From positions 1-12,739 of IMG/VR virus record IMGVR_UViG_3300032038_000051: a stretch of DNA of 12,739 nt; one strand, written 5' to 3'. Of the stretch, positions 5,878 to 10,703 are shown in pieces. The DNA comes from a virus. Taxonomy: Duplodnaviria > Heunggongvirae > Uroviricota > Caudoviricetes. Below the pieces are notes generated by a model. The model saw only the letters and a program-made list of their open reading frames with translations. It had not been told where the DNA came from and did not search any database. Every line of letters begins with the position of its first letter. The stretch's first letter is position 1. A program made the translations under genes and the position numbers.

Positions 5878-6092
5878 GTGACGTCCTCTCCACGATGCCC
5901 GCCAGAGCTACTGAGAGCGATTCTGACGGGACTTCTCGCCACCTCCGGTGCAGTTGGCCGTCCTGCGTTGGCGATGGCCGCAGAACGCCCGAGGGCCGCT
6001 TTCGGCGAAATCCGACGAAAGGGTTTTTTCTTGTCTTGGTCTTCTTTCCTTTGTTTTCTTCGCTTTGTCTTCTTCTCTTTTTATTCTTAGTT

Positions 6093-6222
6093 GCGGGTTT
6101 TCCGCTGCGGAAAACCCGCTGCGGAAAACCCGCTGCGGAAAACCCGCTGCGGAAAACCCGCTGCGGAAAACCCGCTGCGGAAAACCCGCTGCGGAAAACC
6201 CGCTGCGGAAAACCCGCTGCGG
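6093..6222. repeat. 14-bp tandem repeat (CCCGCTGCGGAAAA) x ~8.7, preceded by one inverted unit
   Basis: Units start at 6101 (C>T in first base), 6115, 6129, 6143, 6157, 6171, 6185, 6199, partial 6213-6222. 6093-6105 GCGGGTTTTCCGC is the reverse complement of 6107-6119. Confidence 0.95.
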
Positions 6223-6272
6223 TGACGGCGGTGTGGGGTGGGTATCGGAGCGGCGACGGCTGGGTATAAGCC

Positions 6273-6644
6273 CTATCCCGCCACCGACTCCGCGAGCGCC
6301 GTGACCATCACCAGGACGACGTCGCGGCGGACGGGGTCGAGCGATCGGTAGGACCGGAGCAGGGAGACCTCGTCGGAGGTCATCGCGCCAAGCTCGCACT
6401 CTTCGTCCGCGTCAAGCTCGGAGAAGGCGGTCCCGAGTATCGTGTCGGTAGACACACCGAGAATCCTGCTGAGGCGTACGACCTGCTGCGCCGATATCGA
6501 CCTGGCGCCCTGCTCCCACTTTTGATATGCAGAAAGTGAGATTCCGAGAGCTCCTGCAACGTCCGTCTGTGTCAGCTGGGTAAATGTCTCCCGAGCTCTT
6601 TTCAATGCGGAATCCATCATCACTCCGTTCGTCTCGTGCGTCAT
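6273..6644 (-). CDS. XRE-family HTH repressor (cI-like); start may be 6644, 6620 or 6617
   Basis: LKRARE...LTQTDVAGALGISLSAYQKWEQG.R.I...VVRLSRILGVSTDTILG, C-terminal DEVSLLRSYRSLD. Divergent from the Cro-like gene, co-oriented with the integrase. Confidence 0.9.
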   Translation of the reverse strand: MTHETNGVMMDSALKRARETFTQLTQTDVAGALGISLSAYQKWEQGARSISAQQVVRLSRILGVSTDTILGTAFSELDADEECELGAMTSDEVSLLRSYRSLDPVRRDVVLVMVTALAESVAG

Positions 6645-6653
6645 TGTGTGTAT

Positions 6654-6722
6654 ATAGTAGCACAATCTGTGCGAGATTTTTTGAAAATAGTTCTTGCAAA
6701 GTAGCACAGGGGGTGCTACATT
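6654..6722. promoter_or_regulatory. Divergent promoters and two operators of the lysis/lysogeny switch
   Basis: Rightward TTGCAA (6694-6699)-17 nt-TACATT (6717-6722) with extended TG. Leftward extended -10 TGcTACTAT (minus strand, TACTAT at 6659-6654). Operators GTAGCAC-N5-GTGCTAC (6701-6719, perfect) and GTAGCAC-N5-GTGCgag (6657-6675). Confidence 0.8.
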
Positions 6723-6764
6723 ATTCCCAGAGCGGTCACCCACAGGGTGCGAGTTGGAGGAAGA

Positions 6765-7001
6765 ATGAGTGCAGTGAATAACAACATCATAGCCGAGAGA
6801 AAGCGCCTTGGAATGTCGCAGGAGGAGCTCGGGAGGATCTTGGGGAGGGACCGTTCCGCCATCAGCAGGATGGAGCGTAACCCGATGTCGCTCACCGGCG
6901 ACATGATAGCGAGGCTATCAGACATCTTCTGCTGCTCGTCCGACTATCTGCTCGGTCTTACCGACGAGAGGGTCCCCAGACACTCGGTTGTGGCTACGTA
7001 A
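6765..7001 (+). CDS. Cro-like XRE-family HTH protein (78 aa)
   Basis: GGAGG RBS at 6756-6760; IIAERKRLGMSQEELGRILGRDRSAISRMERN...LSDIFCCSSDYLLGLTD. Confidence 0.9.
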   Translation: MSAVNNNIIAERKRLGMSQEELGRILGRDRSAISRMERNPMSLTGDMIARLSDIFCCSSDYLLGLTDERVPRHSVVAT

Positions 7002-7084
7002 TGACGCCAAACACCATACCGGGCCTCGCGATGCTCGCCCTAATAGCGATCATGGTCGCGAGCGACAGACACTTTAAGTTTTAG
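7001..7084 (+). CDS. 27-aa hydrophobic peptide MTPNTIPGLAMLALIAIMVASDRHFKF (not in the ORF track)
   Basis: TAATG overlap with the cro stop (translational coupling), one TM-like stretch. CRISPR spacer 8 encodes a near-synonymous homologous segment, supporting coding constraint. Confidence 0.65.
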   Translation: MTPNTIPGLAMLALIAIMVASDRHFKF

Positions 7085-7160
7085 ATTCACGCACGTTAAA
7101 CCAATCTTCAAAAGACCCCCGACGCGGGGTCCGGCGAAGCCTTGCAAAAAGGAGCCGAGC

Positions 7161-7286
7161 ATGGAAAAGGGAAAGCCTACAGCGGAGATTCCGCCCAAGG
7201 AAGTGCGCGTAAGAAAGATGGCCTCCGTCCTCCTGCCGCTCTATCGCGAGTGGCTCCGGCAGGGCAAGCCCAAGCGGGAGGGATAG
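7161..7286 (+). CDS. 41-aa hypothetical early protein MEKGKPTAEIPPKEVRVRKMASVLLPLYREWLRQGKPKREG (not in the ORF track)
   Basis: AAGGAG RBS 6 nt upstream of ATG 7161; in the early lytic direction. Confidence 0.55.
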   Translation: MEKGKPTAEIPPKEVRVRKMASVLLPLYREWLRQGKPKREG

Positions 7287-7887
7287 CGCGACCTGTGGGC
7301 GTGCCCCCTTGGCGGGACTGGCGGCTTTGGAACAGGACCAAGCCGATAGTGCGGACAGCCAGCCTCGCCAAAGGAGCGCACCTGCGTTCCACGCACCTTG
7401 AAAACCGAGAGCGGCGCTACGTTGTAGCCACACAAGGAACCGGCGTGATCCTGCGTCGGGTGGCGTGGTCGCTATACAAAAGCAACGGAGGGTCGCGGGC
7501 TGCCGAAAAGGCTGGCCTGCGGACCAGAGACGTAACTCCTCGGCACGGGGAGGACATGGAAGACGTGCTGCGCAGTCACATCCTGCGTCGAGTGACAGAT
7601 GTGCGGCCGGCTATGCGGGGATTCGAGACCGTAGGCCGGCGAGGTGGGCCTGGGACAAGGCGCACGGCGCTTCGAGCGCAACAAAGAAATCAAGCCCACC
7701 TGGCTCGCGAGCGAGGTGGCTGAGAGAGCCTCGCCCATCGAGTGCGCGGGGACGTGAACGGTTCCGAGGCCGCTCCCGAGGTGACGCTCGGGGGCGGCTT
7801 GCAGGCGGCAATCCTGACCGGACGCCGCCACATATGATACGCGAGCGGGAGGCCGCGAGACCTCCCGCCGACGTTCGAGGAGGACTA

Positions 7888-8133
7888 ATGGCCGAAGATA
7901 AGAACGCAGACGGACGCGAGAGCACTGACCGCGAGGCCCGCATAAGGGCGCTTGACTTGACGATCCTGGTCGTCTCCGAGACGGTGCGAGACGCCGCGGA
8001 GGCCGCGTCGAAGTTCGGATTCGCGCCGGACGCAATGGCAGCGCTCACGCAGTCGACCGACGCGCTGTGCAGGCTCGCGCACGAGGCGACCGCGATCGAG
8101 GTCGAGCTCGCTGACGTGCCCGAGAAAGCATAG
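7888..8133 (+). CDS. Hypothetical protein (81 aa, helical)
   Basis: GGAGGA RBS before ATG 7888, phage-like codon usage; real part of the 7465..8133 ORF. Confidence 0.7.
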   Translation: MAEDKNADGRESTDREARIRALDLTILVVSETVRDAAEAASKFGFAPDAMAALTQSTDALCRLAHEATAIEVELADVPEKA

Positions 8134-8145
8134 GCCACCATTAAC

Positions 8146-8217
8146 GCCCCGTTGGCCCAATGGACAAGGCGCTCGCCTCCTAAGCGAGAGCTCCGGGTTC
8201 GACTCCCGGACGGGGCA
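8146..8217 (+). tRNA. tRNA-Arg(CCU), CCA not fully encoded (ACCT)
   Basis: Acceptor GCCCCGT/ACGGGGC, D loop with TGG, anticodon stem CTCGC/GCGAG with loop CT-CCT-AA (anticodon 8179-8181), T arm CCGGG-TTCGACT-CCCGG. Confidence 0.93.
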
Positions 8218-8278
8218 CCTATGTATACACGGAGCGTCATGCGAGGCATCAGCGCGTCGCGCAAGCCGCTCCGTCATC

Positions 8279-8381
8279 TACCGTGTACCGCACGGGAAGT
8301 CACGCCTGTGGAGTGCTCTCAAGACCCTTCGGGGCAATGCACGACGAAGCAGGAACTCACGCCAGTCGTGGGTGGAGGTCC
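8279..8381 (+). ncRNA. Stand-alone TnpB omegaRNA (reRNA)-like scaffold 1
   Basis: TACCGTG-TACCG-CACGGGAA, ACGCCTGTGGAG (8302-8313), AAGAC, cTTCGg hairpin, GAAGCAGGAA (8346-8355), terminal stem CTCACG/CGTGGG, end GGAGGTCC. Same blocks and order as 10234-10364 and as IS605-group tnpB 3' ends (translated tail ACG...KQE). No tnpB ORF directly upstream. Confidence 0.8.
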
Positions 8382-8403
8382 GCGTATTCGCAGGTAGGGA
8401 AGT

Positions 8404-9036
8404 CTTTCACCCGCGCAAGCGTGGGAAGGTCCCATGTGCAAGCCTTTTTCCGTCACCTCTAGGCCTTTCACCCGCGCAAGCGTGGGAAGGTCCTACGTCG
8501 AAATCATCCACCGTGGCGCGCTGGACTTTCGCCCGCACGAGCGTGGGAAGGTCCGCTATAGCGAGGACGAGCTAAGCCCGGTCGAGCTTTCACCCGCGCA
8601 AGCGTGGGAAGGTCCGTGAGCCGAAAGCACGTCAACGACCTTCTAAGCTTTCACCCGCGCAAGCGTGGGAAGGTCTTAGCAATGGGCAACAACGCGAAAG
8701 AAAAGGCCCTTTCACCCGCGCAAGCGTGGGAAGGTCCACGTTAACGCGGAAGAAGGCCCGAGCCGCGTTCTTTCACCCGCGCAAGCGTGGGAAGGTCCGC
8801 TATAGCGAGGACGAGCTAAGCCCGGTCGAGCTTTCGCCCGCGCGAGCGTGGGAAGGTCCACGATCCACGGACTCGCGATGCTCGCCTTGGTCTTTCGCCC
8901 GCGTGAGTGAGGGAAGGTCCGCATGCCGTCGGCCAGGTCGATGAGGTCGAGCTTTCACCAGCGTGGGCGTGGGAAGGTCCGGGACAGCGTGAAGCGCGAT
9001 CCAAAGGCTTTCGCCCGCACGAGCGTGGGAAGGTCC
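8404..9036 (+). CRISPR. CRISPR array 1: 11 repeats (29 nt, CTTTCACCCGCGCAAGCGTGGGAAGGTCC), 10 spacers, type I-E-like repeat
   Basis: Repeats start at 8404, 8465, 8526, 8587, 8648, 8709, 8770, 8831, 8892, 8952, 9008. Spacers are 32 nt x8, then 31 and 27. 61-nt period. Degeneracy increases rightwards, so the leader is on the left. Confidence 0.97.
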
Positions 9037-9083: not shown

Positions 9084-10214
9084 ATGATTAGTAGAGCATA
9101 TAAGTTCAGAATTTACCCGAACAAGACGCAGGCCGAACTCATCGAGGAGACGTTCAGGGCGTGCCGATACGTGTGGAACATCGCACTCGAATGCAAGAAG
9201 GTCGAATGGGATGACAGAGGAAAGAACGTTTCGGCGTACGAGCTGATGAAGCTCCTCACCGGCGTGAAGTCCGTATGCACATGGCTGTACGACGTGCCTA
9301 ACTCGGCCATGCAGCAGTCCATACGAGACCTCGACGTCGCGTTCAAGAACTTCTTCAGGCGAGTCAAGAACGGCGAGAAGCCCGGCTATCCGAAGTTCAA
9401 GAAGGCGGGATGCAGCTTCCAGAGCTACAGGACTCCTGCCGCCGGGAACGCGGTACGCGTCATCGACGACCGTCACGTCAAATTGCCGAAGCTCGGCAAG
9501 GTCAAGTGCCGCATCACGCAGACGCCGCAAGGACATCTGCTGAGCGCCACCGTCAGCAGGACTCCATCTGGAAAGTACTTCTGTTCGATAACGTGCGAGA
9601 ACGTGCCGGAGCCGTACATGGAAGACGGCACCCTCGACGTCATGGGCGTCCGTCTCGGCGTACGCGACCTCATCACGTGCTCGGACGGCGTGAGGGTCGA
9701 GAACCCGAGGGCGCTGTCGAAGTCCGAGAGGAAGCTCAGGCGCGAGCAGCGCAGGCTGAGCCGCAAAAAGAGGGGCTCGGCGAATTACAGGAAGCAGAAG
9801 CAGAAGGTCGCGCTGGTCCACGAGAGGGTCGCCAACCAGAGGAGAGACAACATCCACAAGGCGACCACGAGGATCGTCCGCGACAGCAAGGCGATCGCCG
9901 TGTCGTCCAACGACGTGGCTGGGATGATGCGCTCGAAGAAGTTCTCCAAGGCAGTCGCGGACGCGAGCATGTCGGAGGTCAAGCGGCAGCTGGCGTACAA
10001 GGCGCAGTGGTACGGGCGCGACCTCGTCGAGGTTGACGCGAGCACGGCGTTCGGCAGCACGTGCGGGCGATGCGGCGCGCAAGCGGAGCTCAAGGTCGGC
10101 ACGACTCGCTGGACGTGCCCGAAGTGCGGCGCCCACCACGACTACGCGCTGAACGCGGCAAGGAACATAGCGGCCATCGGCATGGCCGAGATCAGAAGGG
10201 GCGGGCGACCGTAA
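9084..10214 (+). CDS. tnpB: TnpB-family protein, predicted nuclease-dead (TldR-like)
   Basis: AYKFRIYPN HTH start, GYPKFK, LPKLG, ZnF CGRC/CPKC, NAARNI. RuvC-I GVRLG (D>R190), RuvC-II AVSSND (E>S274), RuvC-III HDYALN (D>A355). Confidence 0.92.
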   Translation: MISRAYKFRIYPNKTQAELIEETFRACRYVWNIALECKKVEWDDRGKNVSAYELMKLLTGVKSVCTWLYDVPNSAMQQSIRDLDVAFKNFFRRVKNGEKPGYPKFKKAGCSFQSYRTPAAGNAVRVIDDRHVKLPKLGKVKCRITQTPQGHLLSATVSRTPSGKYFCSITCENVPEPYMEDGTLDVMGVRLGVRDLITCSDGVRVENPRALSKSERKLRREQRRLSRKKRGSANYRKQKQKVALVHERVANQRRDNIHKATTRIVRDSKAIAVSSNDVAGMMRSKKFSKAVADASMSEVKRQLAYKAQWYGRDLVEVDASTAFGSTCGRCGAQAELKVGTTRWTCPKCGAHHDYALNAARNIAAIGMAEIRRGGRP

Positions 10215-10233
10215 GGCCGTCCGACGGCAGCGG

Positions 10234-10364
10234 TACCGCGTGTCACGCGGGAACCGGGAGAAATCCGAACGCCTGTGGAGACTGAGTAAGACCGGGCATC
10301 CCCGGCAATGGTCGCAGAAGCAGGAACCCGCATTCGTGGTGGCGAAAGCAAATGGGATTCGTCC
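10234..10364 (+). ncRNA. omegaRNA-like scaffold 2 downstream of tnpB
   Basis: TACCGCG-TGTCA-CGCGGGAA, ACGCCTGTGGAG (10269-10280), TAAGAC, hairpin CCGGG/CCCGG, GAAGCAGGAA (10317-10326), terminal stem CCCGCATT.../AATGGG, end ATTCGTCC. Usual position 3' of tnpB; out-of-frame NACGD and SQKQE tail remnants. Confidence 0.85.
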
Positions 10365-10395
10365 CGAGTCGACGCAAACGCGCAGGCAGCCTAGT

Positions 10396-10703
10396 GTGTC
10401 ACCCCCACGCATGTGGGATGGCCCCTCCGTGACGAATGCGGATCGCTTGTCCGCATGTGTCACCCCCACGCATGTGGGATGGCCCGCGCTAACGGCGGAG
10501 AGCTTGGAGAGATGTCGCCCGTACGCACGCGGGATGACCCGAGCAGATGAGGATTAACCGCGCGTCGCCCATACGTGTGTGGGATGACCCCAAGATCTGG
10601 AGGATTATGAGTCCTCTGTGCTGCGTCTCTCGTACGAGTGTTGGATGACCCGTCGTGAGTGACGAGGAGGAGAGGCGTCGCCTGCACGCATGTGAGATGA
10701 CCC
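10396..10703 (+). CRISPR. CRISPR-like array 2: 6 degenerate 29-nt repeats (GTGTCACCCCCACGCATGTGGGATGGCCC), 5 spacers
   Basis: Repeats at 10396 and 10457 are identical (61-nt period); degenerate copies at 10512, 10562, 10623 and 10675 all keep GTC at positions 3-5 and the GATGRCCC end. Spacers 32, 26, 21, 32, 23 nt. Confidence 0.85.

Follow-up and report, generated by a model that had tools for sequence, protein, structure and literature searches.

Spacer arrays fused to omegaRNA-like scaffolds flank a predicted nuclease-dead TnpB in a phage and match related phages

Several described systems come close to the locus analysed here. In the portogloboviruses SPV1/SPV2 and in phage and prophage mini-arrays, spacers match close relatives, the targets lie near the array and the carrier's own locus is mutated (Medvedeva et al. 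2019, PMC6858448). TldR proteins are RuvC-inactivated TnpBs of temperate phages with an adjacent omegaRNA-type scaffold, in which one fixed guide is directed against a host promoter, that of flagellin and others (Wiegand et al., bioRxiv 10.1101/2023.11.30.569447; PMC13418256). Some members of the TranC/type V-U and dead-Cas12f clusters lack nuclease activity and adaptation genes (PMC13472631). Here we analyse the first 12.7 kb (12,739 nucleotides (nt), the window) of the Caudoviricetes record IMGVR_UViG_3300032038_000051 (G000), which is linear, 78.6 kb long, 63% G+C and ~70% complete by CheckV. Two spacer arrays lie on either side of a TnpB homologue in this stretch, and spacer 8 of array 1 resembles a small early gene of the carrier phage itself.

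Array 1, 8404–9036, plus strand: 11 repeats of 29 nt and 10 spacers, spacers 1–8 being 32 nt long
Spacer 8, 8860–8891, plus strand: in array 1
27-codon open reading frame (ORF), 7001–7084, plus strand: hydrophobic peptide; its ATG overlaps the stop codon of the cro-like gene (TAATG)
AAC flank, 7010–7012, plus strand: candidate protospacer-adjacent motif (PAM) or target-adjacent motif (TAM), 5' of the spacer-like site
Carrier's own mismatched copy of the spacer-8 target, 7013–7044, plus strand: 24/32

Spacer 8 agrees with 7013–7044 (plus strand) at 24 of 32 positions, the highest score in the full 78.6-kb record once the arrays are set aside; the remaining spacers reach 22/32 at most within the record. 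An exact run of 15 nt spans 7025–7039, and the mismatches fall at spacer positions 3, 6, 8, 9, 12, 28, 30 and 31, five of the eight within the first 12. At position -1 of the flank, C7012 is the base with which repeat 8 ends. Translated in frame, spacer 8 gives TIHGLAMLAL(V) and the locus TIPGLAMLAL(I), with mostly synonymous differences. The original prediction, made from the letters of this stretch, had given the same coordinates, identity, exact run, flank, repeat base and five early mismatches, all of which we reproduced, and the two peptide readings that it compared are confirmed inside ORF 7001–7084. Its count of 15 spacers is right, but only 14 are distinct (spacers 3 and 7 are identical).

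When spacer 8 was shuffled by mononucleotides, 0.2% of the shuffles reached 24/32 against the genome and 0.8% a 15-nt exact run; among real 32-mers of unrelated high-GC loci, 0.9–2% reached 24/32 against the genome. With 14 distinct spacers tested, a 24/32 match is thus expected by chance about 1 time in 6, and identity alone is not significant. The match might then be fortuitous, a GC-rich spacer happening to resemble GC-rich sequence that encodes a hydrophobic helix: some 1–2% of real high-GC 32-mers do as well, and L006, an unrelated high-GC bacterial gene for a small membrane protein, reaches 25/32 to spacer 8. L006, however, was drawn from 241 million metagenome records by a core-exact pattern that fixes 22 positions. 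The rare feature of the spacer-8 match is its codon-consistent pattern, not its identity. Equally good codon-consistent matches among controls, which the original prediction had named as an observation that would undo it, were scarce: of 36,484 controls, just 3 against the genome and 1 against the window combined 24/32 or more with an open frame in which 9/10 or more residues are identical. Corrected for 14 spacers, the chance of a codon-consistent match is ~1e-3 or less.

Alleles of the same gene in related phages bear on the origin of spacer 8. L017 is a 24.7-kb Logan contig reached via the 90% identity cluster of the TnpB homologue; L018 and L053 are Joint Genome Institute (JGI) metagenome contigs reached via the 41-codon ORF that follows the 27-codon ORF and via the L018 repressor, respectively. 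The L017 allele matches spacer 8 at 27/32 (mismatches 3, 12, 28, 30, 31) and the L018 and L053 alleles at 29/32 (mismatches 6, 12, 28, all synonymous); the translation of the latter equals that of spacer 8, including the partial Val codon. Orthologous alleles at 27/32 and 29/32 practically refute chance resemblance. Judged by this series, spacer 8 is a true guide sequence that was taken from a different allele of the small hydrophobic-peptide gene, which heads the conserved early rightward operon in this group of heteroimmune temperate phages from gut/rumen-type metagenomes. The series supports the original prediction, in which a related phage had supplied a homologue of the carrier's early gene with too many mismatches for self-targeting. 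Spacer 8 has G3, G30 and G31 as L018 does, where G000 and L017 have C3, A30 and A31, and it has C6 as L017 does. Because it shares states with both L018 (3, 30, 31) and L017 (6), its source should be a fourth, unsampled allele; by these states that allele is nearest the L018 lineage and is not the carrier's own ancestor. A related phage as the source thus stands, but "sister" phage, the term first proposed, is too close, since the source allele sorts with the L018 lineage, which is more distant.

It is very improbable that spacer 8 derives from the carrier's own lineage and that the carrier copy later mutated to escape. The changes specific to the carrier relative to L017 (7018, 7020, 7021) do all fall at spacer positions 6–9, but the spacer sides with L018 at the three positions where G000 and L017 differ from it, and a cluster of three differences is ordinary here. 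We rejected the seed clustering of carrier changes as a sign of selected escape, because it is not significant: 11% of 9-nt windows hold at least three differences.

The target lies directly behind the genes that govern immunity.

cI-like helix-turn-helix (HTH) repressor gene, 6276–6626, minus strand: Pfam HTH_3; true start ~6626, after GGAG
Divergent control region: 140 nt between the cI-like and cro-like genes
Promoter-like TTGCAA-17 nt-TACATT with palindrome GTAGCAC..GTGCTAC (6701–6719), 6694–6722, plus strand: read by eye
cro-like HTH gene, 6765–7001, plus strand: 78 aa, Pfam HTH_3
41-codon ORF, following the 27-codon ORF; then ~600 nt without a convincing gene; then an 81-codon ORF

The segment 6694–6722 is a probable early rightward promoter with its operator; a consensus promoter scan gave nothing in the control region at the scanner's threshold. 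The divergent cI-like and cro-like genes, the promoter-like element and the palindromic operator agree with the early-operon placement that had been proposed for the target. In alignments, the similarity of G000, L017 and L018 begins exactly at CGTAATG, the cro stop codon plus the start of the small ORF. The cro protein of G000 is 23% identical to that of L017 and 11% identical to that of L018, and the HTH domains of the cI proteins are divergent among the three. The G000 and L017 repressors, 47% identical overall, share an identical C-terminus of 35 residues (6276–6380 versus L017:83–190) but differ in the HTH, which places a mosaic junction inside the repressor gene. By these comparisons, G000, L017 and L018 are heteroimmune mosaics with unrelated cro genes. 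The TAATG stop/start overlap of the small ORF is retained behind three unrelated cro genes, CAG is inserted in frame in its L018 version, and residues are exchanged conservatively (I/V, M/I, V/I); this argues that the 27-codon ORF is a real gene, the first in a block that heteroimmune relatives conserve. The AAC flank stands unchanged in G000, L017, L018 and L053, and it doubles as an Asn codon, so coding constraint may account for its conservation.

The 27-codon, 41-aa and 81-aa ORFs match no PHROG family. The cro protein found no homologue except itself among 5.8 billion proteins and only distant HTH genes in IMG/VR. Past the 3' end of the repressor gene lies a 14-bp tandem repeat (CCGCTGCGGAAAAC, ~9–10 copies, 6088–6227), which is also present in relatives with other repressors (L017:1–30, L018:1039–1134).

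Spacer 8 is one of several spacers with a counterpart in a related phage.

Spacer 10, 8981–9007, plus strand: 27 nt, first 20 nt identical to L018:2430–2449
Array 2, 10397–10703, plus strand: 6 eroded repeats, 5 spacers of 22–33 nt
Variable cassette, 7395–7755: ~360 nt with conserved sequence on either side, two unrelated alleles by alignment (G000/L017 versus L018:2290–2650)

Cross-matching of all readable spacers against all related loci gave three pairs besides spacer 8. L017 spacer 2 matches L018:2456–2487 (minus strand) at 31/32 with an AAC flank, and the first 20 nt of G000 spacer 10 are identical to their L018 counterpart, with a GAC flank. Both sites lie in the L018 allele of the variable cassette, where they abut on opposite strands; because the G000/L017 allele is unrelated to that of L018, the carriers of the two spacers lack the target altogether. 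The third pair joins two contigs with more distant relatives of the TnpB homologue: a spacer of L020 (L020:150–179) matches the reverse complement of the L019 scaffold (L019:135–164) at 29/30 with an AGC flank, and arrays may target rivals' guide loci as well. These matches show arrays that aim at kin phages. The four protospacer flanks are AAC, GAC, AAC and AGC, with C always at -1, equal to the last repeat base, in a set of four that includes three imperfect matches. The AAC flank would suit a type I-E PAM, to which the original prediction likened it, and also a TnpB TAM. In Rfam, the variable cassette has no match. BLAST of array 1 against GenBank phages returned only a chance match of spacer 9 to Curtobacterium phages (25/27, E = 0.7), and spacers 1 and 3, searched with every sixth base free, have no match in IMG/VR.

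Spacer content differs between near-identical phages. G000 and L017 share a single spacer, G000 spacer 9 with its unusual flanking repeat; the leader-end spacers of L017 array 2 are different and 32 nt long. Parts of the window region are present at reduced identity in public sequencing runs, whose named sources are gut, bovine-gut or dairy metagenomes; aligned to the window, their contigs show a relative with a replaced cI/cro segment, a swapped tRNA and arrays with different spacers. Runs X2 and X5 hold still other spacers, and one array spacer in X5 resembles the 5' half of a tRNA. The identical spacers 3 and 7 (8555–8586, 8799–8830) are followed by different repeats, which points to duplication by recombination or to repeated acquisition.

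Each repeat forms a hairpin with a GC stem of 6–7 bp and a tetraloop. The distal end of array 1 is eroded, with degenerate repeats 9–11, a weakened hairpin in repeat 9 and spacers 9 and 10 shortened to 31 and 27 nt. This erosion, the lack of a perfect match among sampled alleles and the absence of spacer 8 from L017 would suit a spacer acquired long ago that is now an unused fossil at the decaying trailer end. We consider such a fate improbable: the repeat 3' end GGGAAGGTC is invariant in every array 1 repeat, including repeat 8 before spacer 8; a contig from run X1, in which spacer 4 is joined directly to repeat 8 and spacer 8, retains this spacer after loss of others; and spacer 10, equally distal, is still exact over its first 20 nt against a relative.

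The arrays are physically linked to a TnpB homologue and to sequences that resemble its guide RNA.

OmegaRNA-like scaffold 1, 8256–8403, plus strand: core 8305–8355; directly before array 1
TnpB homologue, 9084–10214, plus strand: R190, S274 and A355 replace the RuvC catalytic residues
OmegaRNA-like scaffold 2, 10215–10394, plus strand: starts at the tnpB stop codon, the canonical position

The TnpB homologue, intact apart from the three replacements, aligns end to end with ISDra2 TnpB (8bf8, catalytic residues D191/E278/D361) with E = 2e-72. The R/S/A triplet recurs in homologues P0122, P0004 and P0020, whereas other homologues keep D/E/D; the R/S/A proteins of L017, L020 and L019 are 99%, 64% and 61% identical to that of G000. 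From these replacements, the R/S/A TnpBs are predicted to be a conserved nuclease-dead clade. Every readable neighbourhood of this clade adjoins arrays: scaffold and array lie on both sides of tnpB in G000, L017 and L019, and the short L020 contig has arrays upstream of the dead tnpB only. One array in L019 has 36-nt repeats.

Scaffolds 1 and 2 are 73% identical. Their core, CCUGUGGAG...GAAGCAGGAA, is a weak match to RAGATH-18 in Rfam, which is the guide-RNA core of IS607 TnpBs (PMC11061315). The core with its flanking stem-loop also occurs at the 3' end of a canonical Olsenella insertion sequence (IS) tnpB (L023:3606–3760) and of an active phage tnpB (L027). A strict core pattern hit 28 IMG/VR contigs, with tnpB detected in the same fetched locus in 15 of them. 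By sequence and position, scaffolds 1 and 2 are homologues of the omegaRNA of this TnpB family, not plain CRISPR leaders. Within the family, a graded series leads from the canonical IS (L023) through an active TnpB with one more scaffold upstream and a lone repeat (L027) and an active TnpB with two scaffold/array cassettes (L021) to the dead TnpB between cassettes (G000, L017, L019, L020). A second TnpB lineage in IMG/VR (L024, L025, L041, L049; 37% identical) has the same scaffold core fused to arrays with 36-nt repeats; its leading spacers vary from one near-identical contig to the next, and for one spacer a sibling contig holds a 28/32 match.

By eye and without statistics, a repeat-like hairpin (8355–8383) occupies the site of the canonical omegaRNA terminal hairpin, and the 3' ends of the array repeats resemble the omegaRNA 3' end. 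An anti-repeat at 8356–8362 is the 5' arm of this hairpin, and its complementarity to the repeats could be mere homology. The ~15–22 nt before the first repeat (8384–8403, ..CGCAGGTAGGGAAGT) are conserved across cassettes, phages and repeat types (L019, L021, L027); they may serve as a fixed guide, signal integration or belong to an RNA fold.

Because the arrays flank a RuvC-dead TnpB and each follows an omegaRNA homologue, the dead TnpB is the likely effector, and on balance we think that spacer 8 is used by this protein, acting by silencing. Cas1, Cas6e and Cas7e (PF01867, PF08798, PF09344) were not found in the G000 record, itself ~70% complete. The main alternative, with the same origin and target, is a host type I-E Cascade-Cas3 as effector: host Cas6e would process the phage CRISPR RNAs and the rival DNA would be degraded, as has been suggested for virus-borne mini-arrays, with the dead TnpB unrelated to guide use or merely regulating the locus. 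Type I-E adaptation typically leaves a 29+32 periodicity, a hairpin repeat and, at -1 of the protospacer, the same base that closes the repeat. In G000, L017 and L021 the leader-proximal units have 29-nt hairpin repeats and 32-nt spacers, C stands at -1 in four of four protospacers, their flanks (AAC/GAC/AAC/AGC) occupy the type I-E PAM position, and spacer turnover requires an integrase, which was not found in the phage record. Cascade leaves every sixth position unpaired, and the mismatches of L018 to spacer 8 (6, 12, 28) and to L017 spacer 2 (6) fall mostly on such positions; this pattern is confounded with codon wobble (p ~0.1), and we dropped the enrichment as evidence for Cascade.

Other observations make a host Cascade unlikely. 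The repeat core is in no other IMG/VR contig and, apart from one chance single hit, in none of 185,579 GTDB species representatives, a result that says nothing on the true host, and the repeats match no CRISPR-DR family of Rfam. The sequence before the arrays is a TnpB omegaRNA homologue rather than a plain leader, the linkage to tnpB extends across lineages, including the 36-nt-repeat array of L019 and the second, 36-nt-repeat TnpB lineage, and short distal spacers of 22–27 nt are retained.

With the dead TnpB as effector, the scaffold-array units would be transcribed behind the omegaRNA-type scaffolds and then processed, and the repeat-spacer guides would load into the nuclease-dead TnpB. 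The resulting complex would target the start of a rival's small ORF, recognising 5'-AAC and the adjoining sequence that matches the guide. The target site is ~280 nt downstream of the probable early promoter, and spacer 8 has coding-strand sense, so that its guide would base-pair to the template strand and present the AAC side to the polymerase. Bound there, TAM-proximal side toward the polymerase, the complex would act as the roadblock suggested in the original prediction and block the rival's early transcription and possibly its replication, and the carrier allele would be spared owing to its mismatches at positions 3, 6, 8, 9 and 12. The target is the first sequence common to phages with differing immunity modules, and thus precisely those rivals that the resident repressor cannot stop would be hit; exclusion would extend to relatives beyond its reach. 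More tentatively, we propose that gut/rumen-type temperate phages carry programmable non-cutting exclusion, in which a dead TnpB is combined with multi-spacer arrays grown from its omegaRNA and the spacers are renewed against relatives' early operons, variable cassettes and even guide loci.

Several observations weigh against silencing of kin by the dead TnpB. A perfect spacer-8 protospacer was not found in IMG/VR, where an exact search with spacer 8 gave no match, or in the JGI metagenome contigs and the relatives obtained. The core-exact pattern found only L006 in the JGI contigs, a search that missed L018, so this collection is incomplete for the phage group, and a degenerate pattern for T-I-x-G-L-A-M-L-A-L returned only 5 unrelated genes in IMG/VR. 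The best alleles, those of L018 and L053, keep two mismatches in the first 12 nt of spacer 8. RAGATH-18-class TnpBs are very sensitive to mismatches (PMC11061315), and with two seed mismatches L017 and L018 themselves may therefore escape binding. The strict 29+32 periodicity, the GC-rich hairpin repeat and the -1 base equal to the last repeat base are type I-E-like, not TnpB-like, and the record is incomplete (~70%). Spacer 8 lies near the trailer end, before the repeat with the weakened hairpin, and may be an old unused guide. Finally, array transcription and processing, as well as guide uptake by the dead TnpB from repeat-spacer units, are assumed.

The rest of the window contains genes that are not part of the scaffold-array units.

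Reverse-transcriptase gene, 252–1673: weak RVT_1 match, accompanied by a repeat pair
GH25 endolysin gene: between the reverse-transcriptase gene and the cI-like gene
tRNA-Arg (CCT), 8146–8219, plus strand: ARAGORN, Rfam

The 111-nt repeat pair (121–231 and 354–464, 87% identity) beside the weak RVT_1 match resembles a diversity-generating retroelement's template and variable repeats. The tRNA before scaffold 1 is a swappable cassette, tRNA-Arg in G000 and another tRNA in L017 (8135–8213; L017:1907–1990). BLAST of 6200–8140 against GenBank phages gave no match, and a RecT search found distant phages only, none with spacer matches.

If the proposal is right, the locus encodes RNA-guided superinfection exclusion that complements repressor immunity, and it represents a living intermediate between TnpB and type V CRISPR, with type I-E-like repeat units. 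For array-linked dead TnpB/Cas12f proteins few natural targets are known, and proposals so far have been host genes. In this locus the sequences themselves show the targets, which in related phages are a variable cassette and the first conserved gene after the exchangeable immunity module; the carrier has a mismatched copy of that gene. Exclusion of heteroimmune relatives is thus a concrete function that can be tested; the natural alleles at 24, 27 and 29 of 32 form a ready set for measuring mismatch tolerance, and the system is suited to the question of how spacers are renewed when the effector comes with no adaptation genes. Were a host Cascade the effector, the locus would still be a clear bacterial-phage case of the interviral CRISPR conflict first shown in archaeal viruses.

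Like virus-borne mini-arrays (PMC6858448), the arrays reside in a viral genome without detected cas genes, their spacers match kin, the carrier's ortholog is mutated (24/32) or its cassette replaced, and the targets are close by; spacers turn over between near-identical viruses, and the proposed role is the exclusion of heterotypic relatives. Unlike the arrays of SPV1/SPV2, with 1–2 spacers, those described here belong to a bacterial temperate phage and hold 10 + 5 spacers. Their repeats, unlike those of mini-arrays, match no known host array, and the arrays are fused to omegaRNA-type scaffolds and flank a dead TnpB, so the phage may bring its own silencing effector.

As in TldR systems, a RuvC-inactivated TnpB is found with an adjacent omegaRNA-type scaffold in a temperate phage, and by analogy RNA-guided DNA binding and transcriptional repression would be expected. 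In contrast to the single fixed guide of TldR, the locus has multi-spacer arrays with turnover, its targets are in related phages, and the site lies within an operon, not at a promoter. TranC/type V-U effectors and CRISPR-linked dead Cas12f (LaTranC, PDB 9jfo; Hoffmann et al. 2026, PMC13472631) likewise combine a TnpB-like effector with arrays and an omegaRNA-related scaffold; the protein here, however, is closer to ISDra2-type TnpB (E = 2e-72) than to Cas12f or TranC (E ~1e-20), and the locus differs from TranC/type V-U in its type I-E-like repeats, two cassettes and identified phage targets. Type I-E arrays share the 29-nt hairpin repeats and 32-nt spacers; the 3-nt 5' flank with a -1 base equal to that at the repeat end, seen at four protospacers of which three are imperfect matches, may be a further point in common. 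They differ in that here no cas genes lie nearby, no host array was found, the "leader" is an omegaRNA homologue and the flank is AAC/GAC rather than AAG. Thus virus-borne arrays against kin (PMC6858448), the dead TnpBs of TldR systems and array-linked dead Cas12f are already known; new are the pairing of an ISDra2-type dead TnpB with two arrays that consist of type I-E-like units and are fused to omegaRNA, the natural targets located in heteroimmune relatives and, for one target, a natural allele series.

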